Shown in pieces: positions 4,524 through 60,858 of a stretch of 64,000 nt of DNA. Numbering within the stretch: the stretch's first letter is position 1; every line of letters begins with the position of its first letter. The notes beneath the pieces were generated by a model. The model was given only the letters and a program-made list of their open reading frames with translations. It did not search any database and had not been told where the DNA came from. The stretch covers positions 1 through 64,000 of the IMG/VR virus record IMGVR_UViG_3300025264_000007; one strand, written 5' to 3'. Origin of the DNA: a virus. The translations under genes were made by a program, and so were the position numbers.

Positions 4524-4544
4524 AACTGTCTCTCCCTCATTCAT

Positions 4545-7628: not shown

Positions 7629-7656
7629 ATATTACCATGGATACAGTATGCGTCAA
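7629..7656 (-). promoter_or_regulatory. Early-type promoter (ATCCRTG class)
   Basis: TTGACG-CATACTGTATCCATGG-TAATAT. Confidence 0.75.
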
Positions 7657-8324: not shown

Positions 8325-9320
8325 TCATGAAATTAATTCATAATCTAGTATTTTTATTTCCCGCGAAAGAGGTTCTTCGGTTTTGGCGCATAAATCGGTC
8401 GTCAAATACTTCTTATTTCCGTCTGGAAGCACAGTAGCGACGTTTGAACCCTCTGGAAGCTCGCTGGCCTTCAAAATAGCCCCAAAAACATTGGCTCCAG
8501 ACGAAATACCGACAGATAGCCCTAAGTTATTGATTTGTCTAGCAATATTTATCGCATCGGCGTCATTTACTCGTAAAACAGGGCTAAGTGCTTGTAAATC
8601 CACGATTTTTGGTATAAAGCTGTCTCCGGTGCCTTCAATTCGATGTTTTCCGTCTTTATTCTCTCTCGGAAGGATGGGGTAAGCCTTAAAGTCGTTTTTT
8701 TCGCTTTTATTGGTCGAAAGTTCCGAAAAATAGTGAAAAAAGCCCATTACGGTGCCCCCAGTGCCGATTCCGGCAATAAAAACGTCTAATTCTCCCAAAT
8801 TATTGATTCTTAGTGCATTTTCGAGTTCGGGAGCCGTTGTTTGGGCGTGTGCAAGCACGTTCCACGAGTTTTCGAACTGTTTTGGGCAGAAATAGCCGTT
8901 TTTCTTGCTTTTCTTGGCTGCGAGGGCTATACACTTGTCAAACCCGCCCTCTTTTAGCGTTATTTCGAGCAATTTTGCTCCGTAGAAGCGCATAAGGCGT
9001 TTTCTTTCGGTAGAAAGCCAGCTTGGCATGTATATTTGAACGGGATGACCCAGGTAAGCCCCCATAGCAGCAAAAGAAATGCCCGTATTGCCGCTTGTGG
9101 CTTCTACTATGGTGTTTCCGGGTTCTAGCTGACCCGCTATGTAGCCGGCTTCAAGGATTTGGATGGCCATGCGGTCTTTGATGCTGCCGGTAAAGTTACC
9201 AACCTCGTATTTTGCTAAAATATAGAGTTTTTTCCCTTCAAACTCGCACTCTAGTCTTAGGGTGGGTGTGTTTCCAACGAAATTTCGGAGTTTTTTGAGT
9301 TTTTCCGGCACTGTGTTCAT
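8325..9320 (-). CDS. cysK: Cysteine synthase family PLP enzyme
   Basis: VGNTP, KYE..NFTGSIKDR (PLP Lys), EATSGNTG, QFEN, GIGTGGT, GISSGA. Confidence 0.88.
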   Translation of the reverse strand: MNTVPEKLKKLRNFVGNTPTLRLECEFEGKKLYILAKYEVGNFTGSIKDRMAIQILEAGYIAGQLEPGNTIVEATSGNTGISFAAMGAYLGHPVQIYMPSWLSTERKRLMRFYGAKLLEITLKEGGFDKCIALAAKKSKKNGYFCPKQFENSWNVLAHAQTTAPELENALRINNLGELDVFIAGIGTGGTVMGFFHYFSELSTNKSEKNDFKAYPILPRENKDGKHRIEGTGDSFIPKIVDLQALSPVLRVNDADAINIARQINNLGLSVGISSGANVFGAILKASELPEGSNVATVLPDGNKKYLTTDLCAKTEEPLSREIKILDYELIS

Positions 9321-9329
9321 TGGGAGTGC

Positions 9330-11273: not shown

Positions 11274-11276
11274 CTA

Positions 11277-12593
11277 TTAAAACTCCCAAGTGTCATCTTC
11301 TATAACAGTAGTAAATCTTACACCACCTTGCCATAGAGTGTTAATGTGCTCAAAAACTTTATTTGCTTCTGATAACTCTAAATCCCTTCCGTCGTGCTCA
11401 TGTTTTAATATAAGCGTTCCGTCTTGGAGCAGTTCGCTAACAAATATTACGGGCACCGAATTAAGCCCTATGTTTGTAATTAGATCGTCTCGGATAGTTT
11501 TCCAACTCTTCTCGCCCGTAACCTCGGTAATGCGATTATATCCTTCTTGTGGTTGGAATGAATAACTAAACAAATTCAGTTCTTTGCACAAATCATAATC
11601 TAAATAAGATTTAATAAAACTTTCGTCGTTGTGTGTTTCTCGTATTCGCAAGCATTCACTAAATCCTTGTTTTTCCTCAATATATTTGAACATTTTATAT
11701 CCAAGGTGATAGGGATTTATTCTTCCCAAATGAGGTCTAATCACTTGATTATGCAGCCGAATAAATGCGAGATGATATTCGGGAGGTAAATCTAGCGACG
11801 TAAGGATTTTTTCATGGATCAGGCATGCCCAACCCTCATTCATAATTTTCGTCAGTGCCTGCGGCATAAAATATGATGACTCTTGAGCTACGATATTAAT
11901 AAGGTCTCTCTCCCATTCTTCCAAGAAGCGACTATATTCCGCCATGAATTGTAAGACGTTTATATCAGGTTCTAGGGGGATGCGGTTTAGATCAAATTCA
12001 TCCCATCTTCCTGTTGTGTCAGATATTTTAAGATCGTGGTAATATTTTAAAAGCTCTTTGTGGTTTCTCCTTTTCATTCCAGGGGTGCGAGGAATTTGAA
12101 AGCGAATAGAATGGCAGGCATCCAATATTTTTTCTACCCTCTCTATTCCAATAGTAGGGTCTTCCACATATTTCTTGATGCGCTTAGAGGCTGACTTAAA
12201 TCGAGAAAGAGCATTGTCTGCGTCAGTCTCGATGAACATGCGGTTGTTCTTAAAGAAATCGCTATGCCCGACGCAATGTGCCATTGTAAGCACATGAGTG
12301 GGCATCGGATTTTCTGTCATCAAGTAAGAGATGCTGGGATTGGAGTTAATGATCATTTCATACGGAAGACCCGACATTCCTAAATTATATTCTGTCTGAA
12401 TGCGATCAAAAGATTTTCCGTATGACCAGTGTCGGTAGTGTGTAGGTAAGCCTGAATAGGCCATGTGCCCGATCATCTCCTTATAGTCGCATATTTCATA
12501 ATCAATCGGGTACCAGTCTAGCCCAAGCTCTTTCCCGAGATTACAAATTTTAGAATCCCATTGCTGTAGCTCGCTCATTGACCATTCAGCCAT
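11277..12593 (-). CDS. spoVR: SpoVR/YcgB family protein
   Basis: GLPTHYRHWSYGK, YEMIINSNP, AHCVGHSDFFKNN, TKIMNEGWA, NPYHLG, HDGRDL. Confidence 0.93.
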   Translation of the reverse strand: MAEWSMSELQQWDSKICNLGKELGLDWYPIDYEICDYKEMIGHMAYSGLPTHYRHWSYGKSFDRIQTEYNLGMSGLPYEMIINSNPSISYLMTENPMPTHVLTMAHCVGHSDFFKNNRMFIETDADNALSRFKSASKRIKKYVEDPTIGIERVEKILDACHSIRFQIPRTPGMKRRNHKELLKYYHDLKISDTTGRWDEFDLNRIPLEPDINVLQFMAEYSRFLEEWERDLINIVAQESSYFMPQALTKIMNEGWACLIHEKILTSLDLPPEYHLAFIRLHNQVIRPHLGRINPYHLGYKMFKYIEEKQGFSECLRIRETHNDESFIKSYLDYDLCKELNLFSYSFQPQEGYNRITEVTGEKSWKTIRDDLITNIGLNSVPVIFVSELLQDGTLILKHEHDGRDLELSEANKVFEHINTLWQGGVRFTTVIEDDTWEF

Positions 12594-13780
12594 TATTTCG
12601 TGCCTCCAAAAAGTTTCTTAAATGATTTCCAGATATCCCTGTGGTCTACCAGGCGCGTGCGCTTAAAGTCTTTATCTTCCGCGAGCTTCAGCCAATCCCA
12701 CAGTTTTTTTTCAGCCGTCCCAGTAAAAAGAAAACTGTCGTGGTCGAATATTTGTTGTTTTCCGATTTCAGTATAGCATGTCATCTGGCTTATCTCTTTA
12801 ATCCGTCGAAAGCTTTCTAGTGCTTCCTTATTGTCGATTGTCCAATTATCTCCATCGCCGCAATAGAAAGTGTAAATATTCCAGTTGTTGGGGTGATAAC
12901 GTTTCTCTATTATTTCTTCTACTTTTTTTATCCCCGTCGAAACTAATGTTCCTCCGTTGGGAATTTGCGTAAAGAATTGATTCTCGTTTACCTCGTGAGC
13001 GATGGCTGTGTGGGAAATAAATACCACATCTACTGCCGAGTATCGATGATTGAGAAATTGATAGAGAAGAAAAAAGAAACTTCTAGCTAGAAACTTTTTC
13101 GATTTATTCATCGATCCTGAAACATCCATTACGAAGAAGACCACGGCTGACGTGTTTTCTTTTTGAACCGGGGCTATGTGCTTATATCGCAAGTCACTTT
13201 CATGAAAAGGAAAACGATCATCCTTCTCGGGATCATAGGCTCCAGCTTTGATCGCTGCTTTTTTTCTTCTAATCTTTTGTTTTATAGTTTCTTTTTTTGA
13301 CAGCCGCGGGCGAATTCCCCAGGGTCGCTTCCCTTTGCGCTTCATTTTTTCTTCTGTAATAAACTTGAACCGTTTTTTTTCTAGTTCCGGAAGATTAAGA
13401 TCGGCAAAGAGATATTCTGCCAATTCTTCCAATGACATTTCTATCTCATATTTTTCGTCGCCGGCTTTGTCTCCGGGTTGGTCACCGGGTCGGGCTGCGG
13501 TCTTCCGCCGCTTACCAATGCGCTGCCCTTTCTTTACTTGTTTCCCCTGCGCAGACCCTACCGTTTTATTTTTCTCGTTACTGCCATATACAAAGCGGTG
13601 CTCTTTAATTCCCCTAACGGGAATTCGAATTTTCTTTTTGCCATTTTGACCGATAATACTTTCTTCGGCCACCACATCTTTAATGCTGTCTTTGATCGCC
13701 TTTTCTATTTTGTGGCGATGCCGCGAACGATCTCCCGATGCTCGGTCAGCAATTGTTTTATGTTCTCTAAAAGTGCTCAT
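12593..13780 (-). CDS. yeaH: YeaH/YhbH (DUF444) VWA-like protein
   Basis: DRSRHRHK, IPVRGIKE, DLNLPEL, DLRY, MDVSGSM, GGTLVS, WNIY..DGDNW. Confidence 0.92.
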   Translation of the reverse strand: MSTFREHKTIADRASGDRSRHRHKIEKAIKDSIKDVVAEESIIGQNGKKKIRIPVRGIKEHRFVYGSNEKNKTVGSAQGKQVKKGQRIGKRRKTAARPGDQPGDKAGDEKYEIEMSLEELAEYLFADLNLPELEKKRFKFITEEKMKRKGKRPWGIRPRLSKKETIKQKIRRKKAAIKAGAYDPEKDDRFPFHESDLRYKHIAPVQKENTSAVVFFVMDVSGSMNKSKKFLARSFFFLLYQFLNHRYSAVDVVFISHTAIAHEVNENQFFTQIPNGGTLVSTGIKKVEEIIEKRYHPNNWNIYTFYCGDGDNWTIDNKEALESFRRIKEISQMTCYTEIGKQQIFDHDSFLFTGTAEKKLWDWLKLAEDKDFKRTRLVDHRDIWKSFKKLFGGTK

Positions 13781-17399: not shown

Positions 17400-17624
17400 C
17401 TATTCATCGCTAATACCGCTAATCACTTCTACATGTTTAGTTCGCACCCAATAATCACGTTCCCCGCTGCGCACCTTGCAGTAATCGGATAACACAGCCC
17501 CTTGCTCAGATGGATCCTTGTCAAGGGTGCAGTCAACGGCAGTCATCAGCACTCCAATACCGGAGACTTGAGTGCCGTGCTTTCCGTAGTGAAACTTGAC
17601 CAAGTCGCCCACATTATACATCAT
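17400..17624 (-). CDS. Small SH3/KOW-like protein (YNVGDLV)
   Basis: GDLV motif, GIGV, C-terminal VEVIS. Confidence 0.65.
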   Translation of the reverse strand: MMYNVGDLVKFHYGKHGTQVSGIGVLMTAVDCTLDKDPSEQGAVLSDYCKVRSGERDYWVRTKHVEVISGISDE

Positions 17625-17848
17625 TCCGTCTGAGCTTTCGAAACCAAATAGAATTGGTCATAGCTCCAAAGATGTTTTTCACCAGTGGAGCAGACATAAC
17701 CATAAAAATGTTTTTTACTGCCGCCAACGGTGTCAACCACAAGTATAAGACCATCCGTTCCCAAGAGCGGTTTATCAGTGAGAGCGCAGTTAACTCGGCT
17801 AGCAGGCTTGAACCTAAGCAGGTCGCCCACGTCAAAATCCGTTATCAC
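17621..17848 (-). CDS. Small SH3/KOW-like protein (FDVGDLL)
   Basis: GDLL motif, C-terminal YLVS. Confidence 0.6.
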   Translation of the reverse strand: MITDFDVGDLLRFKPASRVNCALTDKPLLGTDGLILVVDTVGGSKKHFYGYVCSTGEKHLWSYDQFYLVSKAQTE

Positions 17849-18071
17849 TCAACCACTCCTTATATTGCCGGCAATGCGATAAAAATACATAACCCGACCA
17901 AGTAGGGAATTGCACCGTAGCTTGATCAGCACCTTCTGGCCAAGTTCGGATCGGCAGTAAAGTGTTGGCGTCAAAGATATCGGTGATCACTCCGAACTCC
18001 TCACAGCCGCCCCCATATTGCCATACAATGAAGTTGCCGACGTCAAACATTATGTGACCAAGTGCCGGCAT
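17832..18071 (-). CDS. Small SH3/KOW-like protein (FDVGNFI)
   Basis: Motif + FGVITDI + VQF. Confidence 0.6.
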   Translation of the reverse strand: MPALGHIMFDVGNFIVWQYGGGCEEFGVITDIFDANTLLPIRTWPEGADQATVQFPTWSGYVFLSHCRQYKEWLSDNGF

Positions 18072-18276
18072 GTTTTTGGGCTTTCTCTAGTTCATAGCTC
18101 ATGAACCATAATGGTAAGGAACTGCTGGGAAAAGATACTGCGTATTGGGTAACGGCTCCGGAGTCAAAGATTGCCTCTATCACGAGCCCGACCTCAGAAC
18201 GGTTGGAAAAAACTGAAGTGATGCTTTTGTGCCCGCCCGTGCGACGCCGACGAACGATATCTCCGGGCTTTATCAT
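18043..18276 (-). CDS. Small SH3/KOW-like protein (IKPGDIV)
   Basis: Motif + VGLVIE + YAVSF + ELEK. Confidence 0.65.
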   Translation of the reverse strand: MIKPGDIVRRRRTGGHKSITSVFSNRSEVGLVIEAIFDSGAVTQYAVSFPSSSLPLWFMSYELEKAQKHAGTWSHNV

Positions 18277-20286: not shown

Positions 20287-20314
20287 ATAATAGCATGGAT
20301 ACACTACTTGTCAA
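20287..20314 (-). promoter_or_regulatory. Early-type promoter (ATCCRTG class)
   Basis: TTGACA-AGTAGTGTATCCATGC-TATTAT. Confidence 0.8.
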
Positions 20315-21464: not shown

Positions 21465-21492
21465 ATAATAGCATGGATAGGGTATCTGTCAA
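21465..21492 (-). promoter_or_regulatory. Early-type promoter (ATCCRTG class)
   Basis: TTGACA-GATACCCTATCCATGC-TATTAT. Confidence 0.8.
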
Positions 21493-36133: not shown

Positions 36134-36367
36134 TTATACCTCTTTACAGTCTATCTTGCGCGCCAGCCAGGGAGACCCCTGGTAAAGAACCTCATAATAG
36201 GGCTCGGATTCGGTAGCAATGCGCTGAGGAGCTTCGTCGCATACAACCACGACGAGGGGCTCGTTTACTTGAACGAAGTCATCCACCACGTTATCGCACT
36301 CCATCTTAATGAGAGTTACTGCCGAGGGAAGGAAAACCAAGTCGCCTTTTTTAGGAGTCATCGTCAT
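36134..36367 (-). CDS. SH3-like small protein (PKKGDLV)
   Basis: Motif + YEVLYQG. Confidence 0.6.
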   Translation of the reverse strand: MTMTPKKGDLVFLPSAVTLIKMECDNVVDDFVQVNEPLVVVVCDEAPQRIATESEPYYEVLYQGSPWLARKIDCKEV

Positions 36368-37457: not shown

Positions 37458-37485
37458 ATATTAGCATGGATGGGGGGCATGTCAA
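37458..37485 (-). promoter_or_regulatory. Early-type promoter (ATCCRTG class)
   Basis: TTGACA-TGCCCCCCATCCATGC-TAATAT. Confidence 0.8.
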
Positions 37486-38181: not shown

Positions 38182-40286
<2,105 letters not shown>

Positions 40287-48296: not shown

Positions 48297-48324
48297 ACTA
48301 TAGCACTTATCCTGCAAAGGTCAA
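48297..48324 (-). promoter_or_regulatory. Sigma70-type promoter, 16-nt spacer
   Basis: TTGACC-16-TATAGT with TG. Confidence 0.7.
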
Positions 48325-50150
48325 GTAATTTCTTCGGGCTCGTCGAAATAGTTGTCGAGAATTGAAAACATTCCCTCTAGCTCTGATGCCATCACCGTAT
48401 CTTGCTCCAGAAGCATATTAGACAACACTACCAGATGCTCGCGCTTGGCCGCCAGCAGAATCTCTGCCTCGCGCAGCGCATCGGCGATGATCTCCCTCAC
48501 CGAGCGATCAAACTGATCTTTAGTTAGTTCCGAAGAGTCGCTGGAGCGGGGAGCATAGCCTTCGGTCTTTCCAAAATAAACGGGGCCAAGAGCCCCCATC
48601 CCATAATCTTTGACCATTTTTTCTGCCACTTGTTTGGCACGCATCAAATCATTGGAAACGCCTGTGCTGGTGCCTTCCTCTCCATAAAACATTTTTTCTG
48701 CCACATAGCCACCCAGCAAAACCTTAATGGAGGCTATATTTTCTTTCTTGTTCCATGAATATTTATCATCTTCAGGCAATTGCATAGTGAGACCGAGCGC
48801 CTGACCGTGAGGAATGATCGTGACCTTATGCAAAGGATCCGCATCTGCTAGGTAATACGCCAAGAGAGCGTGGCCTGCCTCGTGAATCGCCGTCGCACGG
48901 CGCGCTCGATCGGTCATCTTCATAGACTTGCGCGGCTTCCCTATTATTAGTTTATCGCGCGCCTGCTCAAGGTGGCCTCGATCGACAGACGCGCTCCCCT
49001 CCATCGTAGCGCGGATCGCTGCTTCGTTCACCAGATTAGAAAGATCTGCTCCCGAAAAACCAGTGGTCATCCTCGCTATCTCATTTAAATCTACGGCAGT
49101 ATCAAGGGGCACTCCCTTACAGTGTATATCTAAAATTTGCTTACGCCCATGAGCGTCAGGGAGAGGTATATGCACCTTTCGGTCAAAACGACCGGGGCGC
49201 AACAGAGCCTTATCCAGAACCTCTGCGCGGTTAGTCGCCGCCAATACAATAATGCCACTATGCTCCGAAAACCCGTCCATTTCTACCAGTAGCTGATTCA
49301 ATGTCTGCTCGCGCTCGTCATGACCACCGCCGGAACCGGAGCCTCTTTTTCTTCCCACAGCGTCTATTTCGTCAATAAAAATAATACATGGAGCAAGACT
49401 TTTGGCTTGATCAAACAGGGCGCGAACTCGGGCTGCACCAACTCCCACAAACATTTCCACAAAATCGGATCCTGAAATAAGCAAGAAAGGGACGTTGGCT
49501 TCGCCAGCCACCGCCTTAGCCAGAAGGGTCTTGCCGGTTCCCGGCGCGCCCACCAACAAAGCTCCCTTTGGGAGTTTGCTGCCCATGCGGGTAAAGCGAG
49601 AGGGGTGCTTTAAAAAATACACCACCTCCTCAAGTTCTGCTTTGGCCTCCTCGCATCCGGCAACGTCAACAAAGCGAGTATGGTTAGCTTCAGGTAGAGA
49701 AAGACGCGCCTTGGTTTTAGCAAATCCGTCAACCTTCCCCGCGGAGGCAGATAAATTTTTGATCAAAAGATACAAAAAATAAAACAGGATCAGGAACGGC
49801 AACCACGACAGCAGGAGGGTCACCCACAGTGAGGGCGCTTCCGCCTCTAAAAATCTTACCTCTAAGTTCTTTTTGGTCGCCAGCTTATTAACGAAATCAT
49901 CGGTAAGGGGCGCGGTAGTCACATATACCCGCTCCCCCAATTCCAGCCGCCAGTTATTTCCCTGCACCACAAAGCGACCGGGATTGTGCTCGTTGACATT
50001 ATCAAGGAGCGAGAGAATTCTAGTATAACTCACCTCCTCTACAGACGGCTGGTGCCTTTTATCTGCCCAGGAGGCTAATGCTGAAATTAATAAAAAAGCG
50101 CCCAACCACATCGCTAGAACTCGTAGTTTTCGACTATAAAATATTCCCAT
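48321..50150 (-). CDS. ftsH: ATP-dependent zinc metalloprotease FtsH
   Basis: Two TM helices, [44 protein letters not shown]. Confidence 0.96.
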
Positions 50151-50218: not shown

Positions 50219-50398
50219 TTACTCTAATAGTTCAAGAGTGTTGAGGATCTTCATTTCTGATTCCGCGGTAGTCTCTGTTTCTTCCCAGTGGATAGTCCAC
50301 CATTTGTCGTGGCGGCGAGTAAATGGTCCTAACAGCATTCCTACGAAACCGGTCGAAGGATCCTGCACCAAGGTACCTGATCTTAATTGTGTGCTCAT
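50219..50398 (-). CDS. Small SH3-like protein (LRSGTLV)
   Basis: SD AGGAGG before ATG 50398; VGMLL, WTIHW, LELLE. Confidence 0.6.
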   Translation of the reverse strand: MSTQLRSGTLVQDPSTGFVGMLLGPFTRRHDKWWTIHWEETETTAESEMKILNTLELLE

Positions 50399-50441
50399 CG
50401 AGCCTCCTAACTTCCCACTACTATGGGTGCTTGTTGTCTGG

Positions 50442-50912
50442 TCATTTTTTACACATTTGGTTGTTGCACAACCCTGATAAAAAATTGAATTGTTTCTTCT
50501 GGAGGTTGCAGGTAAAGAAGGGATCTTTTTCTGCAAACTCATCCAAATATTTGTTGGCAATAATTGTTTGGAATACCGTGATGCCGTGATCTTTGATCTT
50601 GTTGACATAATAAGGGTTGTCATCGTAAAAGATTTCTATGTTATGTTCTTTTAGGATTTTTAATTTATGTTCCGCCATTTTCTGGAAGTGATCCAAATCC
50701 ATATTTTTTTTCTCATACTCAAATCCGCACAAGATATCTTCGTAGGTATCTGGACCAAATCCTAAATCGGCTAAACCTTTTTCTACTTCGTGTCGTTGAG
50801 AAGGGGGAGTTCCCGTTACAATATAAACCTTCCCCTGCCAACCGTTAATGAGTCTTTTAAAAAACTCAGGTGCATACGAAAGGGTATCGTGGAAATCAAT
50901 GCCGATATTCAT
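50442..50912 (-). CDS. HAD-superfamily phosphatase-like protein
   Basis: IGIDFHDTL, IVTG, K, IFYDD. Confidence 0.75.
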   Translation of the reverse strand: MNIGIDFHDTLSYAPEFFKRLINGWQGKVYIVTGTPPSQRHEVEKGLADLGFGPDTYEDILCGFEYEKKNMDLDHFQKMAEHKLKILKEHNIEIFYDDNPYYVNKIKDHGITVFQTIIANKYLDEFAEKDPFFTCNLQKKQFNFLSGLCNNQMCKK

Positions 50913-52883
50913 TAGCTCAAAATATCCATAGTATTATATATGTTTGTGTAAGTTTCCTGGGAAATATTATCTATCGCAAAGGGGCGTGGTTCGCCGATCC
51001 ACTGAAGCTGGAACCAGAGGACGCCGTCGGAACGATCCCAGTCAGGGGGGGATTTGATAATAAGGGCTGTTTGCTTTGTCTTGCGACACTGCACGAGTCT
51101 CCCCACTTCAAGCGTACGGGGGACAACCTCAAACATTCCGTAGTGCCTACTCATCTTCTTTCCTAACGATGTTGAAACAATTATTAACGTTTACTAAAAG
51201 TGTTTGTTCTTTCTCTCCGGAGGTGAGCCACTGAAGATCTACATAGCGGTTGGCCCAGCTTGTGCCGGTACCTTTCTTCTCCTCGTAAGACTTGGTGAGG
51301 ACAAGAGCGAGGCGGTCAGAACGTCGGCAACGCAGAAGAGTGCCGGGCATCTGAACTTTGTTCGCATGGTAGAGACTGTAGTCACTCTGATTCACTCAGC
51401 ACCTCCCAATTCATAGGCATATAAATACATCGGCGACCGTTCGGAAATAGCACATCCCATAAAATATTTTTACCGGTCACTACTTGCTTGTTAGCAAGGA
51501 TAGCATATTCTCCACACTCTTTAACGGTGGAGTTCTCACGGCACTGTTTCTTGATACGGAGAAGGGTGCCTGGTTTGAGTCTGTCAGGGTAATTCACTGG
51601 CTACCTTCTCCAACAGATCCGGGCGGTATCGCTTGGGATGGTTGCCGTTGTTAAAAAGAACGCTGACATAATGATATTGTCCGTCAGGAGTATGAGTGAC
51701 AAAGTTGGAGCGCGTGATAAGACCCATCTGTCCGCCGGGGACAGCAATGCGAACCAAATCACCCACCTTGAACTGGGGTTTTGTGTCGAAGTCTGGATTC
51801 ATTTTACTTTCGCCAGATATTCTATGGGGTATTGGGTTGACTGGTGCGCTCCAAAGAGAACGTCAACAAACTGAGTCTCGCCTCCGAGATATTCATCAAG
51901 AGCCCAATAGTTTGAGCGAGTGACGACGCCGAGAGCCTTTGTGGCGTTGGCACTGACCAATTCGCCAATCTTATAGCTCACATATTCGGGATTCATTACC
52001 ACATCCTTTTCGTCAGTTTTTCTTCTTGAATAAAGAAGGTTGAGCTATCGGGCTTGAGTACACACCACATGGGATAGACCGGACCATTAATCTTTTCAAC
52101 CAGAACCAAGGGCGTCTTGTTGTCAGCCAGGTCAATGAACCACAAGGTTGACAAGTGGTCAATCGCCGTCTTTCTAATTCTTACTAGGTCGCCGCACTTC
52201 ATGATACTACCTCAAAATGGCTGGCGTTTCGCCAATGCTCTGCGTGAAACCGTGGTTCGTGCGTGGTATCCATGAGAGTTACTCTGATGATTAGGTCTGC
52301 GGGGTCGGGTCCTATCTCCGTTACCAGTCCCAAAGCACCCCCAGGCTGATTGGTAACTCGATTGGGCTTGCGTCTTACGAGGTTGCCGACTTTCATGAGA
52401 GCACCTCCGCTTGATCAGGGAAAACCATAACGGCACCCATGTCTAGGAAATTCATATTCTGCAAAGACTCGAACCGCACAAGAGACGGGTAAACCTTTAC
52501 TCGCTCCGGTAGCTTGTCTTGATCTAGCTTGTGAGAGAGGTCATACTTTTCTTGGATAACCAAGCCAATCTCCCCCTCTAGTTTAGCACGGATGACGGGA
52601 GCGAACTGAGCCAGACCAGATTTGTTTATTTTGATAATCTGTCCGACTTTCATGAAATCTGCTCCATGTTGCAGACATAATCTACGAAAGATTGCCCGCC
52701 ATCAATCGGCTCGCATTGATAGAAGAGGTGTTCATCGGCATCTTCATAGTCTCGGTCAAACTTACATGACGGCGACAAGCCGATAACCAAAGCAATCACA
52801 TTGACCTCGGTTGCTGCGTTGCTGTTGACCAGCATACCCGGCTGGATGCGACAGCGTTTTTGAATCTCTTTTGCTACGCTCAT
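50912..52883 (-). CDS. Array of nine small SH3/KOW-like paralogs (50912-51154, 51147-51395, 51382-51597, 51584-51802, 51799-52002, 51996-52202, 52199-52396, 52393-52653, 52650-52883)
   Basis: All carry x-[KEQM]-x-G-x-L/I-V/L/I near the N-terminus, G/A-L-V/I strand, V-x-W/F, mostly ending E-V/I-S-like; all overlap their neighbours. Confidence 0.75.
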
Positions 52884-52892
52884 CTGTGCCTC

Positions 52893-53048
52893 TTAATACA
52901 TGAAGGTGTTTTCAACGAGGTGTTCAACAACCACGTCGTGAATTTCCATAGCATTTTGGGGATGCTCGTTGATGGCGTCGTACCAAGCGTCAAGTGCTCC
53001 TTGACCAACGGCTCCTAGAATCTTTTCAATGTGTTCTTGAACTGGCAT
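52893..53048 (-). CDS. Hypothetical 51-aa protein (not in ORF track)
   Basis: SD AAGGAG directly after promoter; MPVQEHIEKILGAVGQGALDAWY... Confidence 0.6.
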   Translation of the reverse strand: MPVQEHIEKILGAVGQGALDAWYDAINEHPQNAMEIHDVVVEHLVENTFMY

Positions 53049-53067
53049 GTCTCTCTCCTTGTATCTT

Positions 53068-53095
53068 ATATTAGCACGGATAAGGTGCCTGTCAA
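53068..53095 (-). promoter_or_regulatory. Early-type promoter (ATCCRTG class)
   Basis: TTGACA-GGCACCTTATCCGTGC-TAATAT. Confidence 0.8.
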
Positions 53096-54842
53096 GTTTT
53101 ATTCTTGGGTCCCTTAGAAATAAGTTCTAGGTGGTCGCACCTTACCCAATAGTCTCCGTCGGGTGTTCGCACTTTGAACTTATTGTCGGCAGTGAAAACA
53201 TAACGCTGCTTAATAACAATACCTGTCAACATCGTCTCATCAATATATTCTTCTGTTACTCGCCTAGCCTCAAAGTTTACAAGGTCGCCGAGTTGGTATC
53301 TAAACGGATTGCTCATCGTTCACTAATTTCAAATGCTGGACGGAATAATATTCTTCCAGTTCATATCCGAGCCAGTTAACCTTTACACAGACCGTAGTGC
53401 GGTCGTCTGGTGTTTCTGGATAGGAAAGCACCAGCCCAAGTTGGCGATTGTTGCCTTTGGCTACTGATTCCCGAAAACTCCAATCGGGCTCTACTAAGTC
53501 ACCGGGTTTCACTTATCACCTCTAGGCTTCCTTCTCTAAAGACTTGACCGCCGCTGAACCCTTCTAAACGAACAAACCCCTCAGCCACTGAAAGAACCAA
53601 ATATGTTCGGTCGCCAAGGCTGGCTCCATATCGTCCCTTGATCGAGACCAAATCACCCGGCTTCATTTATGACCTCCAAATACTTATTCCGAAACCAGTG
53701 AGTTTGTTTGCCCAGTGATGTTTTTTCGGTCAGAAGTAGTTGAGTGTAGTCTTCTTCTTCTGAAGATTCAAGAGCAATAATGATCCCGTAGAATATTTGG
53801 TAAGAGTAGCCCTCAGCCGTCTTAACCAAGTCACCGAGTTTCACGCCACAACTCCAATTCGCCGTAGTGCCAAGTTCTTTCTTTGCCTTCCAGCAAAGTC
53901 AAAACTGTTTCGCTTCGGTGGGAACCACCTTCAATAACTTTGATGACCAGCATCTTTTTGCCGGCCACTTCTCGGTCGGAAAAAATGTTTGGGGCTTGTC
54001 TTACCAAATCACCCGGCTTCATTTAGCACCTTCAATTCACACAAGCGTTGCTTACAGGGGGAGTTGTCGGACATAAAGTTCCAGAGAACGTCGCACCACA
54101 TATAGCCCGCTGGGTTTTTGGGTGGGAGATAAACTTTTACAACAATACCTGAGACTGACTTGTCCATTTCGTGCTCAAACGTTACGAGATCACCGACTTT
54201 CATTGACTAGCTCCAAATAATCGTGGTCTTTGGGATAGGGTCCATTGCCTTCTCCGTCAGTCCACGCAATATCAACTTTTTCTTCTGCGCCTTCACAAGC
54301 CTTCCACACACCGACAACCACGCCATAGACTGGTTCTTTCGTGGGGTGTGACCATTTTACTAAATCACCGCGTTTCACTGATTACCTTTTCTATACGATA
54401 GGAGCTACAATTGCCGGGAGATCCGTCCTCGCAGTAAACCATACGAATGTGGGGCGGGATGCCCTCGCCGTGAAGCTCAACTTTAGAAATGAGGGCGAGG
54501 TGACCCGACTTCATCTCAACAAGGTCGCCAACTTTTAGTTCGTATCGCCAACCGGCGTCGTCTCTAATCATTTGTTTCTACAATCTCAAAGTTAGGGTCG
54601 CTGTGAAGGCTCACCCAGCGGGCATCCCTTACCTGACCCAAAGCCTCAAGCAGGAGGAAGGGGCCAGGAGCAGGCGTCTTAAACGATACCTTGTCAGTCT
54701 CCCCGCTCACCTTCCACATGTCACCCTTTTCGTGAATGCGGTTTTTGCCGTGACGGGTGATGCCAGAGAGCTTAACTGTCTTGCCTACGTTAGGTCCAGG
54801 CGGTAGCTGTGTCCAGTGCTTTTTCACGACTCTCTCCCTCAC
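53092..54842 (-). CDS. Array of nine small SH3/KOW-like paralogs (53092-53316, 53300-53512, 53499-53666 [not in track], 53653-53844, 53831-54022, 54009-54203, 54190-54378, 54365-54571, 54564-54842)
   Basis: Six consecutive ORFs start MKxGDLV; 14-nt overlaps. Confidence 0.8.
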
Positions 54843-54846
54843 TAGT

Positions 54847-54874
54847 ATACTACCACCCTATTGGGATAAGTCAA
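54847..54874 (-). promoter_or_regulatory. Sigma70-type promoter, 16-nt spacer
   Basis: TTGACT-16-TAGTAT with TG. Confidence 0.65.
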
Positions 54875-54884
54875 GTTATTTATT

Positions 54885-55127
54885 TTATTGTGCCAGCAAT
54901 ATTTCAGCGTAATTTACACATAGACAGACAGTCTTGATTCCCTCGGGACGACACAGAAGTGGTCCTCGTCCAGATTTAGTGAAGGGGTTTCCAGAATAGG
55001 CAACCACGCTATAAAAGTATCCTTCGGGCCAAATAGGTTCAGGCCCACTACACACATACCCCAGCGTGGGCTTACCCTTCAGACGAATTTCAACCACTTC
55101 ACCAATCTCAAATTCGTTTTCAACCAT
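54885..55127 (-). CDS. Small SH3-like protein (FEIGEVV)
   Basis: SD GGAGG, motif, LGYV, YSV. Confidence 0.65.
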   Translation of the reverse strand: MVENEFEIGEVVEIRLKGKPTLGYVCSGPEPIWPEGYFYSVVAYSGNPFTKSGRGPLLCRPEGIKTVCLCVNYAEILLAQ

Positions 55128-55151
55128 AATGAAAACCTCCCTTACAGCAGT

Positions 55152-55179
55152 ATATTAGCACACTTCTAGGAGAGGTCAA
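55152..55179 (-). promoter_or_regulatory. Sigma70-type promoter, 16-nt spacer
   Basis: TTGACC-16-TAATAT with TG. Confidence 0.7.
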
Positions 55180-55180
55180 G

Positions 55181-55420
55181 TTATATTTCGATTCTGAGAA
55201 AAGTCAAAAATCTGGAAAGTAGGGAGCGATTATTTTTCGGAGCCATCTCGTTTTTGGTAATTTCATCCGCACAGGTAAAAAAGCGTTGCTCTCGGTATTG
55301 CTGGAGCAGGCGCTCGTCGCTTAATACCCACTTGCGGAGTCTGAACCATTCCACCAAGTCACTGGGAGTATAAACGGGCTGGTTCTCTAAGATAGCCAGA
55401 CGGTATAATGCAGTAGCCAC
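55181..55420 (-). CDS. Hypothetical protein
   Basis: GTG 55420 after GAGGAG; the track ATG abuts the -10 box. Confidence 0.5.
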   Translation of the reverse strand: MATALYRLAILENQPVYTPSDLVEWFRLRKWVLSDERLLQQYREQRFFTCADEITKNEMAPKNNRSLLSRFLTFLRIEI

Positions 55421-55438: not shown

Positions 55439-55466
55439 AGTATACCATTCCTTCGGCAGAGGTCAA
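55439..55466 (-). promoter_or_regulatory. Sigma70-type promoter, 16-nt spacer
   Basis: TTGACC-16-TATACT with TG. Confidence 0.7.
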
Positions 55467-56910: not shown

Positions 56911-57442
56911 TGCCGTCGTCTACCTCATCGCCATGAACATCCCAGCCCTTAGTGGTCTGGCGAGCAAATAGTTCCAGCTTTGCCTGGTCCGGAAACATTT
57001 CTTCAATTCTCTTTCTTACTTCCCCTGGCTTGGTGCTGTGTTTTTGGCGCATCTTCGATACCAGTTGTCGGATGTTCCGTGCCCCACGCGGTTGCGGGAT
57101 CTTACCTCGCTTACCGATAAGGCACAGTTCGCACTGACTCATAGTATAAAAACCGGGATTCACTTTTTGTTTATCCCAAACAAAACCGACGGTCGCCCAG
57201 CTAAACCCCCACGCCTTCATGAGTTCAATGGCCTGGTCGAGGTGAGGATTGGTTGTCCACAAAAAAAGGAGACAATCCTCGTCGCAATGACGTGTGATAT
57301 CGAGGCGTTTTAAATCCTTAAGTTTGAGGCACTCATAATGACGCAGCGCGCCCCCGCTGTCGGGGCCGCCTTTACCCGTGTGCTGCAACTGCCCTTTGTA
57401 ATCCCACGGGGGATCTGCGTAGATAATCTGATATTTTTTCAA
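56888..57442 (-). CDS. MT-A70 family adenine methyltransferase
   Basis: IIYADPPW, LFLWTT, WGF, FVWDK, HSTKP, LELFAR. Confidence 0.92.
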   Translation of the reverse strand: MKKYQIIYADPPWDYKGQLQHTGKGGPDSGGALRHYECLKLKDLKRLDITRHCDEDCLLFLWTTNPHLDQAIELMKAWGFSWATVGFVWDKQKVNPGFYTMSQCELCLIGKRGKIPQPRGARNIRQLVSKMRQKHSTKPGEVRKRIEEMFPDQAKLELFARQTTKGWDVHGDEVDDGIDMAFHD

Positions 57443-60400
57443 GTCAACCTCCTAAAGGTTCTGCGGAGACTGCGAGTGCTAAATCCCCATTTATCACTGT
57501 GTTCTAGGTTGGCGACGTAAACTTTATTCAAGGAAATCCTGTCGTTGTCTTTGACGCCCCAGCATCTAATGCGGGCATCAAAGGCGTTGCTGTCAGTCGT
57601 GTGGATAATCCAATACGCTGCGCCGTTCTTTGTCTTCTTTACTTTTACTTCCCTCGGAATGAACCAGACCAGTTGAAGGTCGGGGTCATACTCGCTGATA
57701 GGTGGGCAGCCTCGTCCCATTAGATTGTCCTGAATCTCTTGTGGCATAATCTCGTGGATCGGAAAGATGCCAGTGAGAGAGGCGAAGTGTTCCAGCTTCT
57801 CTTCATCCGTGAAGTCTCCTTCGGGAGCGTAGAGTTCAATGTTATCCTCAAGGTTTTTCTCCTTGCGTGGCCGGTCAACTGCTACCGCTGACCAAAAGTG
57901 TCTGAGTCCTGTGAACCTGTCATCCATCAACTCGTCAAGAGCTTTACTCCTGACCAGCACATCCAAGGCTTTCTTGTTGAGTTTGGAGTAGGTAATGTTC
58001 TCATGGAAAAGGAACTCCTCAATCGTATTGAAGGGTCGGTTGTTGATAATCTGGTCTAGGGCGCTGTCGCCCAGACCTTTGATGCCGGCAAGCGGTTGAA
58101 TTAATGTTTTGCCGTCGTCTCCAATTTCCCAGACTCGTCCTGATCTATTAATGCTGGGTGGCTCTATCTCAAACCCAAAGGCTTTGGCGGTGTTGATAGC
58201 GCCAGCCTTCTTGTCCTCTGGTTCCTTGTCCAAGAACGCAGCCATCCACTCAACGGGATAATAATAACTAAGCCACGCACACTGGAATGACACCGCTCCG
58301 TAAGATACAGCGTGTGACAAGTTGAAGCCATATCCGGAGAAGTATTCCATGTTGGCCCACTGTTTATCGGCCACCTGTTGGGATAGCCCATGCTCGGCAC
58401 AACCTGCTACGAACTTTTTATAAATCTTGTCTCTTACTTTATCTTTTCCTGTCCCCTTTTTCGTCAGAACTTTACGGAGGAGGTTGCCCTCGTCCAGAGA
58501 AATATCCTTGCCGAGCTTGTGAGCTAGCATCGCCAACTGTTCTTGGAAGACCAGTAGTCCGTGAGTCTCGCCCAAAACTTCTTTAATGATTGGGTGGTCG
58601 TAATAAACTTGGCTCGGGTTGGTCTTGTTGGCAACATAGAGACTATGCGCCTTAGCGGATAAAGGTCCCGGTCTGAAGATAGCTGTGACCGCTGCGAAGT
58701 CTAGTAACGATGTGGGCTCTGCTTCTTGGCAGAACCGTTGTGCTCCGCCGTTGGTCATCTGGAAGATGCCAGCCCACTTGCCTTTGTGAAAAACCTCTCG
58801 CCAGACTTCTTGGTTGTCAAAATCAATTGCGTCGGGATGGAGATGAGCATTATAATAATCTCTGACCTGTTCAAATGTCGGCTCTTCAATCCCTTCGTGT
58901 CGTTTTAATATATGTCGGATGGCTCCCGAAATCATACGGAGAGTTGATAGTCCGAGCAGGTCGAATTTAATGAAGCCGAGTGGCTCAAGGTGGCGAACGT
59001 TCTGGCCTTCACTCCACGGGGTCTGGATGACTCCGCCGGAATTGATGAGCGGCATATGTTTGTCAAGGTCCTCTGCTACAACCACGCCGCCAGCGTGTCG
59101 TGATATGCTCCGCATATTGCCGAACAGATTATCAACGTGAGTCTCAATATGAGGATACTTTTGGAAGAAGTCTTGGAGGGTTTCACTGTATTCTTTTACC
59201 TCCGTAAATGTTGGGGTATAGACGCCAGCGATTTGACCGTGCGCTTTCTTGGCTAGAGGTGTGGCTTCGCTCATCATAACACCAGTGACCTTGTTGACTT
59301 CCATAAACGGAATGTCATAGAACTTGCCAATGTCTTTGATGAGAGAGCGGAGTTGAAGCGTATTGAAGTTGCTGATGGGGACGACCGTTGTCTTTCCCCA
59401 GTCTTCTGCTAGTTGCTCCTTCAAAGCCATTGGCTCCTCAACATCAAAGTCAATGTCCGGGTAGCCTTTGCCGCCCTTGGTTAAGAACCTCTCAAACTGT
59501 AGGTCGTATTTGATGGGGTCAATCTGAGTAATGTCTAGAACATATGACAGGAGGGAGCCAGCGGCTGAACCTCGTCCAAGTCCTACCAACATTTCCTCCT
59601 GGGCTTTATCACTGATAGCTTTCATCGTCAGAAAATACTGGGCGAACCCTCGGTCCTTGATGATTCCTAGTTCATATTTAAGACGCTCCACATACTCGGG
59701 GTCTGTGATATTCTTTTCTTTCATTCCCGCCAAGGCGTCTTGGGTCAGAGCTTGGATGGCTGTCTTGCCTTTGGGCACCACGAATTCTGGGAGGCGTACT
59801 TCACTGCCCGGAAGGAAATCTTCACAGCGATCAAAAGCGATGTGATGGGTGCGTTCAATGCTGTCACGGATGGCGGTATCATCATAACTGATACGGTGCT
59901 TGGCTGAATATCGTTTGTAACTCTCCCACATCTGGTCCCCATTTTTGGGATAGAGTTCGTAGCCGACTTCATCAACCGTCTCGGGAAGACCGTTGTCGCC
60001 GTCAGCCCACGCTGGAACTTTGCCGCCCCAGCCGATGCGCTTATACATCTCTCGGTCTTTCCAAAGTTCTGGTCGGGGGTAGTGACTGTCGGCAGTGCTG
60101 ATAATCTCTACGCCCATTTCCATACAGGCTTGGATAATATAATTGTTGCCTTCGTGCTGTTCCTTGATATCGTTCCATTGAACCTCTCCGTAGAAGCGGT
60201 CGCCAAAGATTTCTTTGAACTGGGCGATTGTGTCCCGCATCGCTGAAAGAACGTGGTCTGGGCTCTTGTCTCTGTTCTTCCAGAAGTCTGCGAACAAAGG
60301 ACCAGACATACAGGCGCTGCTGATGATGAGCCCCTCATTGTATTTGTCCAGCATCTCAAAATCCATACGAGGATAACGATAAAAGTTTTCAGGTTGGTAG

Positions 60401-60858
60401 CTGTTGGATACCAACTGGAAAAGATTGTTGAGACCTGTCTGGTTCTGCGCAACCATCACAAGGTGGTTGCGGCTATTGAGAGGATTAAATTTCTTTTGTC
60501 GGTCCTCATCTTCAATGACCATTCCATACTCTTCTTTTTTTTGTTTCTTCTTGGAGTTGGCCTTGTGTTCTTCATACATTGTGCGCCACTTACGATGGGA
60601 CTTGATGAAGTAGGATTCACATCCGTAGATGGCTCGGAAGTCTTTGCCGTCTGCCTTCATTTGCTTCAAGTGTTCCACCTGAAATGACAAGCCGTTCATG
60701 TGACCGTGGTCGGTGAGAGCGTGGGCATTCATCCCGTTCTCGTAGGCGAAATCCATATGTTCGCCTGGCATCCCCAATCCGTCAAAGGGGGAGAGCCCAG
60801 AGTGTGCATGAAGACCCACAAATGGGATCTTGCTTACAATCCGTTCAGACATTAGCAA
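57439..60858 (-). CDS. dnaE: DNA polymerase III alpha subunit
   Basis: PHP (LHAHS..DG, LTDHG, DSHY), GRGSAAGS, FERFL, PDIDFD, SRHAGG, KFDLLGL, YGFNLSHA. Confidence 0.96.
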   Translation of the reverse strand: MLMSERIVSKIPFVGLHAHSGLSPFDGLGMPGEHMDFAYENGMNAHALTDHGHMNGLSFQVEHLKQMKADGKDFRAIYGCESYFIKSHRKWRTMYEEHKANSKKKQKKEEYGMVIEDEDRQKKFNPLNSRNHLVMVAQNQTGLNNLFQLVSNSYQPENFYRYPRMDFEMLDKYNEGLIISSACMSGPLFADFWKNRDKSPDHVLSAMRDTIAQFKEIFGDRFYGEVQWNDIKEQHEGNNYIIQACMEMGVEIISTADSHYPRPELWKDREMYKRIGWGGKVPAWADGDNGLPETVDEVGYELYPKNGDQMWESYKRYSAKHRISYDDTAIRDSIERTHHIAFDRCEDFLPGSEVRLPEFVVPKGKTAIQALTQDALAGMKEKNITDPEYVERLKYELGIIKDRGFAQYFLTMKAISDKAQEEMLVGLGRGSAAGSLLSYVLDITQIDPIKYDLQFERFLTKGGKGYPDIDFDVEEPMALKEQLAEDWGKTTVVPISNFNTLQLRSLIKDIGKFYDIPFMEVNKVTGVMMSEATPLAKKAHGQIAGVYTPTFTEVKEYSETLQDFFQKYPHIETHVDNLFGNMRSISRHAGGVVVAEDLDKHMPLINSGGVIQTPWSEGQNVRHLEPLGFIKFDLLGLSTLRMISGAIRHILKRHEGIEEPTFEQVRDYYNAHLHPDAIDFDNQEVWREVFHKGKWAGIFQMTNGGAQRFCQEAEPTSLLDFAAVTAIFRPGPLSAKAHSLYVANKTNPSQVYYDHPIIKEVLGETHGLLVFQEQLAMLAHKLGKDISLDEGNLLRKVLTKKGTGKDKVRDKIYKKFVAGCAEHGLSQQVADKQWANMEYFSGYGFNLSHAVSYGAVSFQCAWLSYYYPVEWMAAFLDKEPEDKKAGAINTAKAFGFEIEPPSINRSGRVWEIGDDGKTLIQPLAGIKGLGDSALDQIINNRPFNTIEEFLFHENITYSKLNKKALDVLVRSKALDELMDDRFTGLRHFWSAVAVDRPRKEKNLEDNIELYAPEGDFTDEEKLEHFASLTGIFPIHEIMPQEIQDNLMGRGCPPISEYDPDLQLVWFIPREVKVKKTKNGAAYWIIHTTDSNAFDARIRCWGVKDNDRISLNKVYVANLEHSDKWGFSTRSLRRTFRRLT

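Follow-up and report, generated by a model that had tools for sequence, protein, structure and literature searches.

Overlapping gene cassettes for predicted small SH3-like barrels in a variable early block of a putative marine T4-type phage

Introduction

Do the very small genes packed into one block of a marine phage genome encode a single protein family, and how is such a block built? The question is raised by the first 64,000 nucleotides of the IMG/VR record IMGVR_UViG_3300025264_000007 (the window), where 20 minus-strand ORFs lie head-to-tail and tightly packed between 50912 and 55127, 19 of them with 55–92 aa and one with 51 aa. A first-pass annotation had described the 19 larger ORFs and counted about 30 paralogs of one small β-barrel in the window. 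The array is real but was over-counted: HMM and profile-profile tests yield about 17 robust and about 22 probable members. We found no publication on this family, no database family and no cultured representative. The reading we favor, with some reserve, is that of a hyperplastic block in a marine T4-type phage, driven by early promoters and carrying a repertoire of 55–90-aa SH3-like barrels of one phage-restricted family, whose genes are cassettes swapped at their junctions and whose products would be early-acting single-domain binders.

Results

In the 80.6-kb contig, ORFs of the minus strand hold the strict motif K.GD[LI]V 12 times and those of the plus strand not once. An iterated HMM converged on 13 ORFs of the window (E 1e-7 to 1e-26) with zero off-frame decoys, and leave-one-out HMMs recovered seven of the 12 seeds at E<0.01. 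Twelve ORFs, which score E 1e-7 to 1e-26 against the family HMM, form a statistically solid family, and they show its signature of an MKxGDLV start, G-h-h and V-x-W strands, an LEV[IV][SN] end and a length of 55–90 aa. Profile-profile tests, in which decoys reached at most 2.1%, back five more (77–95%): the minus-strand ORFs 52393–52653 (86 aa, 82%), 51382–51597 (71 aa, 87%), 17400–17624 (95%) and 18043–18276 (93%), and residues 105–164 of the 164-aa protein encoded at 4050–4544 on the same strand (77%, E 2e-5). Probable members, all on the minus strand, are 50912–51154 (80 aa; 49% to the family and 69–78% to ORF 51147), the distant 52650–52883 (77 aa; 47–57% to ORF 51147), the divergent 51147–51395 (82 aa), 17621–17848 (27%) and 36134–36367 (77 aa; 15–33%).

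The same tests leave ORFs 30935, 61323 and 36792 marginal, together with two minus-strand ORFs of the array: 54564–54842 (92 aa; hhalign 9%), a possible distant member whose orthologues start with MxVGDKVKL and end with VEVI, and 54885–55127 (80 aa), which reaches 0.3% to the family and 31–35% to ORF 17621 and has no sequence support as a member. Other candidates scored no higher than decoys and are not supported, namely the minus-strand ORFs 50219–50398 (59 aa; 0.2%), 52893–53048 (51 aa; 0.55%) and 17832–18071 (2%) as well as 29286, 56713 and 13820. The first of these had been counted with the array; an orthologue of it directly follows a 51147-type gene in two related loci, L001 and L002. 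The second cluster of four that had been placed at 17400–18276 keeps two members and a probable third (17621) and loses 17832. Among the proposed singletons 36134 is probable, 30935 and 61323 are marginal, and 29286 and 56713 drop out, while the proposed modules are reduced to the C-terminal one of 4050 and a marginal one in 36792, without 13820.

Among 1.8 billion proteins the family accounts for 301 clusters, and 131 viral loci contain 1,039 of its domains, without exception from uncultured marine T4-type phages. The window's own 80-kb fragment stops short of the Gp23 gene, and its T4-type assignment goes via related records of 172–191 kb, four of four of which carry the Gp23 capsid family PF07068; in relatives of 175–190 kb, the Gp23 gene is accompanied by DnaE. 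Judged by these genes, the host genome is probably that of a T4-type phage, and the family appears to be restricted to phages.

Over 912 unique domains the four-block pattern holds as first annotated, with nearly unrelated loops: the blocks reach 2–4.3 bits, and the loops stay below 1 bit and contain insertion hot-spots. Length, charge and three loops vary between members, with pI values from 4.4 to 9.7. AlphaFold models were compared for two members. The canonical 53300 (pLDDT 83, pTM 0.70) is predicted as a five-stranded barrel and the divergent 51147 (pLDDT 78) as an N-terminal helix followed by five strands of the same barrel class, in line with the small KOW/Tudor/SH3-type barrel expected from the first reading. 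The two models have many PDB matches in common, and their top Foldseek and VIA neighbors are all SH3, KOW, Tudor, chromo, PsaE or NdhS barrels (TM 0.5–0.6, Z 5–6.7). As matches these are of medium quality (best Z 6.7, best Foldseek E 0.086), and they do not assign a function. The models support small SH3/KOW/Tudor-class β-barrels as the predicted fold, with one scaffold and variable loops.

Within the SH3-like superfold (SH3, KOW, Tudor, chromo, PsaE, NdhS, CarD-RID) the array proteins resemble other members by their five-stranded barrel of 55–70 residues, the conserved Gly after strand 1 and the hydrophobic core, but they match no named family significantly by sequence or profile, and the MKxGDLV ... 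LEV signature and the chained genes are described for none of its families. No matching family was found in Pfam, PHROG, NCBIfam, PADLOC or PDB, and a Pfam search of 10 members gave nothing at E≤1. Of 126 family representatives, PsaE (PF02427), SH3_15 (PF18346), DUF1918 (PF08940) and BAH (PF01426) each match a single one (E 5e-4 to 6e-3); a profile match common to the members is missing, and the named SH3-like families were rejected as identity. DsrB (PF10781), to which there was a language-model lead (0.91), has no Pfam match.

The proteins had also been suggested to mimic NusG-KOW or ribosomal factors and, as such, to act on the host transcription-translation machinery. The family profile does align over its full length to a PDB NusG KOW domain, at sub-threshold E values of 0.28–0.98, and the structural neighbors include Spt5/NusG KOW, CarD-RID, UvrD Tudor and ribosomal L24/L26-type barrels. 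However, the KOW model (PF00467) matches none of the 126 representatives at E≤0.01, and the Z scores of 5.3–6.1 for Spt5/NusG KOW are level with those of Tudor, CAP-Gly, chromo, PsaE and other barrels. The variety of surfaces across members speaks against one shared target. With the best NusG E value at 0.28 and no Z above 6.7, the similarity is that of a generic fold class, and we regard such mimicry as quite improbable.

Members of the family are mostly chained by a short overlap between neighboring genes. Six consecutive 14-nt overlaps run from 54378/54365 to 53512/53499. The chain is headed by the core member 54365–54571, which belongs to the backbone and is conserved across all relatives, passes through the five cassettes of variable slot 1 (53499–54378: 54190–54378, 54009–54203, 53831–54022, 53653–53844 and 53499–53666) and reaches the backbone gene 53300–53512. 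All these genes are on the minus strand, as are the further core members 53092–53316 (backbone), 52199–52396 (the cassette of variable slot 2) and the three at 51584–52202 (51996–52202, 51799–52002 and 51584–51802). The junction spans about 33 nt, with the stop/start overlap pattern RTG-AAR-NNN-GGT-GA, and encodes the last strand of one gene and the first strand of the next. Its L-E-V codons contain the next gene's ribosome-binding site, GGAGG, at −11 to −7, the [N/S] codon plus one base forms the next start codon, and the upstream TGA stop is supplied by the GGT-GAY of the next gene, giving the 14-nt overlap. Among the 1,039 domains of the 131 loci, 14-nt overlaps join 417 of 548 adjacent pairs, a share that is inflated because only loci containing one or more such junctions were chosen. 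The longest chains comprise 15 genes, and the junction occurs in at least 120 viral stretches with less than one expected by chance.

The LEV is kept in 67% of genes preceding a 14-nt overlap as opposed to 28–41% otherwise, GGT is used in 75% of genes lacking an upstream overlap compared to 35% T at internal Gly, and dS is lowest in the junction codons. These sequence statistics indicate that constraint acts on the junction as DNA and not on a protein motif alone. The gene ends, previously read as pure protein motifs, are indeed conserved, but they also contain the ribosome-binding site, start and stop of their neighbors and, putatively, a recombination site.

This constraint bears on whether the ORFs form one family at all. 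They could be unrelated small early ORFs which share an initiation-friendly MK.. start and a Shine-Dalgarno-bearing tail, given that much of the conserved sequence sits in the junction and that leave-one-out alignments often span the N-terminal motif only. However, away from the junction the internal blocks G-[ILV]-[VI] and V-x-W are conserved with 1.8–3.6 bits across the 912 domains, HMM alignments extend over the full length down to E 1e-26 with zero decoys, and a canonical and a divergent member are modeled in the same barrel class. For the 12–17 robust members the idea is largely refuted, and for the array as a whole we consider it very improbable; it may hold for 54885, 50219, 17832 and 52893.

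Three sigma70-type promoters had been annotated at the array, and all were found on the minus strand. An extended −10 motif (TTGACC-N14-TGcTAATAT) lies at 55152–55179 upstream of ORF 54885, as part of a 36-nt repeat whose other copy is at 54844–54879 and contains the second motif (54847–54874); the third is located at 53068–53095 (TTGACA-N14-TGCTAATAT). The motif has nine matches, all on the coding strand, compared to 0.01 expected, and four are at the array block. From its sequence and placement, the early-type promoter motif is real and would drive the array. Our scans found no terminator-like stem-loop beside the repeats at 54847 and 55152, and no promoter or terminator match and no stem-loop terminator in the six chained junctions. 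ORF 54885, enclosed by the two promoter repeats, is missing from all 11 related loci, and a metagenome contig runs from 54881 straight to 55190, promoter to promoter, skipping it.

The array is not invariant among relatives. Slot 1 holds zero to five cassettes in close relatives. The slot 2 cassette 52199 is present in L001 (94% aa identity, dS 0.06) and cleanly absent from L002, and other relatives carry a different cassette. Homology blocks between the window and L001 stop at 54034, 53647 and 53522, that is at junction repeats, and a one-gene indel between L001 and L002 is flanked by about 35 nt of junction homology. Since homology between relatives breaks at the junctions, whole genes are gained, lost and replaced there. 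Metagenome contigs, too, split off or rejoin at these sites, though their joints have short sides (21–55 nt) and perhaps derive partly from other phages sharing the junction alone. Four cassettes have dS values of 0.06–0.3 compared to 1.0 or saturation for DnaE, FtsH and dUTPase; some cassettes are of much more recent origin than the genome around them.

Every tested orthologue is under purifying selection, in the loops as well as in the core. The pooled dN/dS is 0.27, and 55 independent pairs give 0.16 for the core and 0.19 for the loops. The loops do not evolve faster between orthologues, and as there is no non-synonymous excess in them, an arms-race signature is absent within orthologues. 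Because the loops are under purifying selection like the core, the diversity stems from cassette turnover and not from loop hypermutation. The earlier picture of a diversified library therefore holds for the single scaffold and its variable loops, but instead of hypermutating, old conserved proteins are reshuffled whole.

Fast turnover would also be expected if the junction merely promoted its own duplication and spread by recombination, with the ORFs as passengers of little or no benefit to the phage. Cassettes do change lineage faster than the backbone, their copy number is highly variable and the junction is constrained as DNA. Against such selfish cassettes stand the purifying selection in loops and core (dN/dS 0.16–0.27), the eight backbone members in syntenic order across relatives with saturated synonymous sites, and a junction whose ribosome-binding site, start and stop keep cassettes expressed, which selfish DNA does not need. 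We therefore consider this explanation unlikely.

Overlap coupling is typical of complex subunits, and small β-barrels often oligomerise. Coupled translation along chains of up to 15 genes could thus deliver equimolar barrels for one hetero-oligomer, a ring or filament as in Sm/Hfq-type small barrels. But cassette number and identity vary from zero to five within a slot, single genes can be dropped cleanly, and charge and loops are heterogeneous. The variable number and clean single-gene loss fit a fixed stoichiometric complex poorly, which makes this assembly a quite unlikely alternative.

Discussion

In T4-type phages, promoter-early stem-loop (PeSL) cassettes and modular shuffling are known from hyperplastic regions (Arbiol et al. 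2010, PMC2839356; Comeau et al. 2014, PMC4122927). Our locus is alike in the phage type, in its block of small early genes that are non-essential and follow sigma70-like promoters, and in close relatives that differ by whole-gene insertion, deletion or replacement at short repeats between genes. Such repeat-bounded changes are seen at the junctions and in the promoter-to-promoter joint that removes ORF 54885, and the promoter repeats at 54847 and 55152 correspond to the promoter half of a PeSL. However, the chained junctions lie inside overlapping coding sequence: the repeat is coding sequence in two frames plus a ribosome-binding site, and not an intergenic unit of promoter and stem-loop terminator. 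Furthermore, PeSLs flank unrelated ORFans, whereas the genes shuffled here all belong to one protein family.

In phage T4, the small counter-defence gene tifA, which encodes an inhibitor of a host toxin, is amplified in tandem (Srikant et al. 2022, PMC9391042). Common to both cases are the phage type, the small early protein and a variable region in which short-homology recombination alters copy number, but the tifA arrays are recent, identical, laboratory-selected copies, and the paralogues described here are ancient, deeply diverged and equipped with a built-in junction. Integron gene cassettes are likewise promoter-less, arranged in series behind a common promoter and swapped as units at a conserved boundary. 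In contrast to integrons, we saw neither an integrase nor a folded site of the attC type, the boundary is placed within coding sequence, homologous recombination is the presumed mode of exchange, and all cassettes encode one fold.

The junction would couple the translation of successive genes in a chain. Its similarity is maintained at the DNA level, and for this reason it may serve as a site of homologous recombination, at which any cassette could be inserted into any chain with immediate expression. This similarity extends across hundreds of otherwise unrelated cassettes, so phages could share a common pool of binders. We tentatively propose a plug-and-play element, composed of last β-strand, ribosome-binding site, start, first β-strand and stop, by which marine T4-type phages may pool SH3-like binders through homologous recombination, each cassette neutralising a different host factor or defence protein. 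In the broader reading that we favor, the proteins would be single-domain binders that differ in their targets and work in the early phase of infection, for host takeover or counter-defence. It is solely the fold class, the early-type promoters, the genomic position and the turnover that point to such a role. Loop diversity on a selected scaffold is the pattern expected if the repertoire consists of specific binders for proteins of the host.

In many abundant marine T4-type phages, the family fills about 4–5 kb of the genome. If the plug-and-play reading is true, the array would in effect be an integrase-free, in-frame counterpart of the integron. Gene shuffling with a recombination site buried in overlapping coding sequence and translation signals, by which a new cassette would be expressed at once, is directly testable, and so is a compact, well-folding natural scaffold of 55–70 aa with very different loops, each kept by selection. 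If targets are found, they could open up many ocean phage-host interactions and provide a small binder scaffold.

Array membership and family fold

All long ORFs lie on the minus strand, where 20 tiled ORFs run from 55127 down to 50912, 19 of them 55–92 aa and one 51 aa long, with intergenic gaps only at 54843–54884, 53049–53091 and 52884–52892. Across the contig, minus-strand ORFs contain the motif K.GD[LI]V 12 times, plus-strand ORFs never. Starting from 12 seed ORFs and iterated on six-frame ORFs (contig, 11 related loci and database matches), a family HMM converged on 13 ORFs of the window, which are all the seeds and 17400–17624. No off-frame or wrong-strand decoy entered this set. In leave-one-out tests, profiles recovered 7 of the 12 seeds with E<0.01 and the others with 0.01–1, and below threshold the next nine matches were true-frame minus-strand ORFs ranking ahead of the first decoy. 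Profile-profile comparison of orthologue alignments (negative controls <1%, 40 decoy ORFs at most 2.1%) placed 52393 at 82%, 51382 at 87%, 17400 at 95%, 18043 at 93% and residues 105–164 of ORF 4050–4544 at 77%. Five further ORFs (50912, 52650, 51147, 17621 and 36134) reached 15–49%, or mutual links at 47–78%. The candidates 50219, 17832, 29286, 56713, 13820 and 52893 scored no better than decoys; membership of 54885, 54564, 30935 and 61323 is doubtful. By these measures the family is real but very divergent (mean column identity ∼25%), with ∼17 robust and ∼22 probable members in the window instead of the ∼30 first proposed. It is very improbable that the small ORFs are not one family at all. 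A 156-aa gene inside the array (50442–50912), between 50912 and 50219, has no Pfam or PHROG match and no orthologue in the related loci L001 and L003, where the flanking family genes adjoin.

Structures were modeled for the canonical member 53300 (104-sequence alignment; pLDDT 83, pTM 0.70, five strands) and the divergent 51147, hub of the ambiguous group (pLDDT 78, N-terminal helix and five strands). Foldseek and VIA-align returned solely SH3-class barrels for both, with many entries common to the two lists: NdhS, PsaE, the KOW domains of Spt5, NusG and MutS2, Tudor, chromo, PWWP, CAP-Gly, CarD-RID, the UvrD Tudor domain, VapX and YorP. The scores were middling (best Foldseek E 0.086, TM 0.5–0.6, best Z 6.7 and 6.6). 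Since both models match SH3-class barrels alone, the small barrel suggested initially is confirmed as a predicted fold class, from which no specific family or function follows. KOW domains stand among the neighbors as one barrel type of many. Mimicry of KOW by family members is distinctly unlikely. A charge bias that would point to DNA mimicry or RNA binding was sought and not found (pI 4.4 to 9.7, unbiased).

Searches of the members against Pfam, PHROG, NCBIfam and PADLOC gave zero usable matches, and 126 diverse relatives produced only seven one-off weak Pfam matches, each to a different SH3-like family. Among PDB sequences the family profile had only sub-threshold matches, the ESM Atlas yielded unnamed viral clusters, a weak DsrB lead and nothing else, and we found no description of the family in the literature. 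P0098, a protein of 888 aa with 11 stretches, was dismissed as a member, being an unrelated beta-propeller-type repeat.

Junctions between chained genes

A 12-sequence profile retrieved 97 clusters at 90% identity. When 1.84 billion representatives were searched exhaustively, 301 clusters emerged at 50% identity. The latter are all unnamed metagenome proteins, nearly all of 54–75 aa, that start with MKVGDLV and end with LEV[IV][SN]E[SA]R. This tail is the coding product of a 14-nt overlap with RTG-AAR-NNN-GGT-GA of the next gene. Over 308 chained starts the consensus reads TGGAGGTnnTnA-RTG-AAA-GTn-GGT-GAT. GGAGG lies at −11 to −7 within the L-E-V codons, the ATG/GTG start of the next gene is made of the [N/S] codon and the first base of the following Glu codon, and the upstream TGA stop is supplied by the next gene's GGT-GA. 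The ExR tail is common only where a member follows, and L-E-V is kept in 67% of genes before a 14-nt overlap, but in only 28–41% otherwise. Since the L-E-V codons hold GGAGG and their retention depends on the following gene, part of the apparent protein motif is the translation signal of the neighboring gene.

Gly is encoded by GGT in 75% of starts without an overlapping upstream gene, whereas an equally invariant internal Gly has T at its third position in 35%; the junction Lys is AAA in 78% and the Asp GAT in 74%. Junction codons also have the lowest dS (0.42 vs 0.90 in loops). By this codon bias and the low dS, the junction is conserved both as DNA and as protein. The synonymous constraint at the junction and the follower-dependent retention of LEV are new here. 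Two divergent members, 51382–51597 and 51147–51395, overlap their upstream neighbors by exactly 14 nt with non-canonical GTG-AAY starts. Two-domain fusions of the family exist among metagenome proteins (P0122, 127 aa; P0150, 85 aa), and in P0122 the LEVV tail of the first domain continues directly into the next KVGDLV, as would follow from the fusion of two cassettes, i.e. whole family genes, at a junction that has lost its stop or frame shift.

Related loci and phage setting

A degenerate junction DNA pattern of ∼39 bits was used to collect related loci. It occurs three times in the window (zero in shuffles) and in at least 120 stretches of IMG/VR, with a chance expectation below 1. Among the 131 loci listed (1.2 Mb), the HMM found 1,039 family domains, with as many as 29 in one stretch, and the longest chains comprise 15 genes. 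Adjacent pairs in these loci overlap by 14 nt in 417 and by 4 nt in 49 of 548 cases, the 14-nt share being inflated because loci were selected for having one such junction.

In species-representative cellular genomes (596 Gb) the pattern was present in only 19 stretches. Four of these, single matches in Paenibacillus, Domibacillus and two other MAG contigs, hold no family domain and were set aside as chance; the other 15 are real arrays and all sit on MAG contigs whose taxonomic labels contradict one another. A Gp23 capsid gene was found in 3 of 5 MAGs tested vs 0 of 14 control bacteria. Since three MAGs with arrays also carry Gp23 genes, the arrays are probably phage contigs binned into bacterial MAGs, and with the cellular cases best read in this way the family looks phage-restricted. 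Array-bearing contigs include PBLX01000048.1 (L137/L139), NHDW01000006.1 (L146), PBOB01000020.1 (L138) and CP070664.1 (L143/L148), and the MAG labels are Legionellales, Methylococcaceae, Acidiferrobacteraceae and WOR-3; for the WOR-3 'chromosome' no Gp23 match was obtained.

The window covers the first 64 kb of one viral contig of 80,615 bp (completeness ∼40% by CheckV). Among the neighbors of the array are a DnaE-type polymerase, dUTPase, FtsH (48321–50150), GroEL (38182–39768) and a PrkA/SpoVR/DUF444 trio of the YeaG/YcgB/YeaH type, encoded together at 8325–13780. In related records of 172–191 kb, three of which are 95–100% complete, this DnaE occurs together with a major capsid protein of T4 Gp23 type, so the window comes from an uncultured T4-type phage. 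The polymerase (57439–60858, 1139 aa) is a Pol III alpha polymerase of the bacterial DnaE type and contains PHP, NTPase, finger and HhH domains. Its combination with a T4 Gp23-type capsid gene in the window lineage and the related viral records G001–G004 is new here. Array DNA is contained in many marine metagenome runs, and none of the public runs listed with the stretch was an RNA run. No array or family member was found in GenBank phages by tblastn with the proteins P0107 and P0103 or by blastn with the chained core, nor did a neighboring 556-aa protein have a match there.

Cassette turnover and selection

The array is not invariant across relatives: in the 11 related loci a syntenic backbone of 54365, 53300, 53092, 52650, 52393, 51996, 51799, 51382 and 51147 types is interrupted by slots with differing numbers and kinds of cassettes. 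In the slot flanked by the 54365- and 53300-type genes, five chained cassettes are present in the window and 0 to 3, partly different ones, in the relatives. The slot between the 52393- and 51996-type genes holds the 52199 cassette in the window and L001, none in the related locus L002 and a different cassette in five other loci. That the barrels build one hetero-oligomeric assembly is quite improbable.

DNA homology blocks between the window and L001 start or stop at 54034, 53647 and 53522, within junction repeats, and between L001 and L002, 96–98% identical elsewhere, one gene was lost between junction copies sharing ∼35 nt. At those same junctions, Logan contigs from four marine runs stop, continue unlike or re-join. 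A joint from 53511 to 53854, found in two runs, omits two cassettes, and a promoter-to-promoter joint from 54881 to 55190 omits ORF 54885; these metagenome joints are supporting evidence only, because their sides are short. Between the window and L001, DnaE has a dS of 1.0, and FtsH and dUTPase are saturated, but dS is 0.06 for 52199, 0.13 for 53653, 0.23 for 53831 and 0.30 for 53092. Since these values lie far below those of the backbone, the four cassettes were exchanged among lineages long after the backbones had split. Such cassettes, much younger in dS than their backbone, are new here.

The pattern of scaffold and loops is kept over 912 unique domains: the blocks MKVGDLV, G-[ILV]-[VI], V-x-W and LEV[IV][SN] carry 1.8–4.3 bits, and the three intervening segments, where the insertions are located, carry <1 bit. 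Pooled dN/dS between orthologues of the window and L001 is 0.27. Scaffold codons have a dN/dS of 0.16 (bootstrap 0.12–0.21), junction codons 0.18 and loops 0.19 (bootstrap 0.15–0.23) over 55 independent orthologous pairs, all ungapped and from different loci. A search of these pairs for positive selection in loops found none; purifying selection acts equally on loops and core, which is new here. By the low dN/dS throughout, the proteins are functional and the loops constrained as much as the cores. Paralogue diversity is old and reshuffled, not continuously generated. That the family genes are selfish cassettes is unlikely.

Promoters

A generic sigma70 scan gave 9 sites vs 7.2 expected and thus no overall enrichment. 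In its extended form, TTGAC-N14-TGnTAnnMT, the search returned nine window matches, all on the coding strand, vs 0.01 expected. The nine copies share the consensus TTGAC-N9-TATCC(A/G)TG(C/G)TA(A/T)TAT and lie at 4545–4572, 7629–7656, 20287–20314, 21465–21492 and 37458–37485, and, four of them at the array block, at 53068–53095, 54847–54874, 55152–55179 and 55439–55466. Due to this strand bias, excess and shared consensus, the three array promoters named in the first-pass annotation (55152, 54847 and 53068) can credibly be assigned to one class of phage promoters. Early timing would be suggested by the T4 precedent (PMC2839356) and by the resemblance of these promoters to host sigma70 promoters. 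A 36-nt promoter-bearing repeat in two copies (54844–54879 and 55149–55184) flanks ORF 54885–55127, which has no orthologue in the 11 related loci; ORF and repeats look like a PeSL-like insertion beside the chained array.

Biological meaning of the array

It is well supported that the array represents one SH3-like family, chained by a multi-purpose junction and reshuffled as cassettes, each under purifying selection, behind host-type promoters. The array would most likely provide a set of specific binders of one domain each that act early, for host takeover or counter-defence, by analogy with small counter-defence genes, tifA among them (PMC9391042), and with other variable early regions in T4-type phages.
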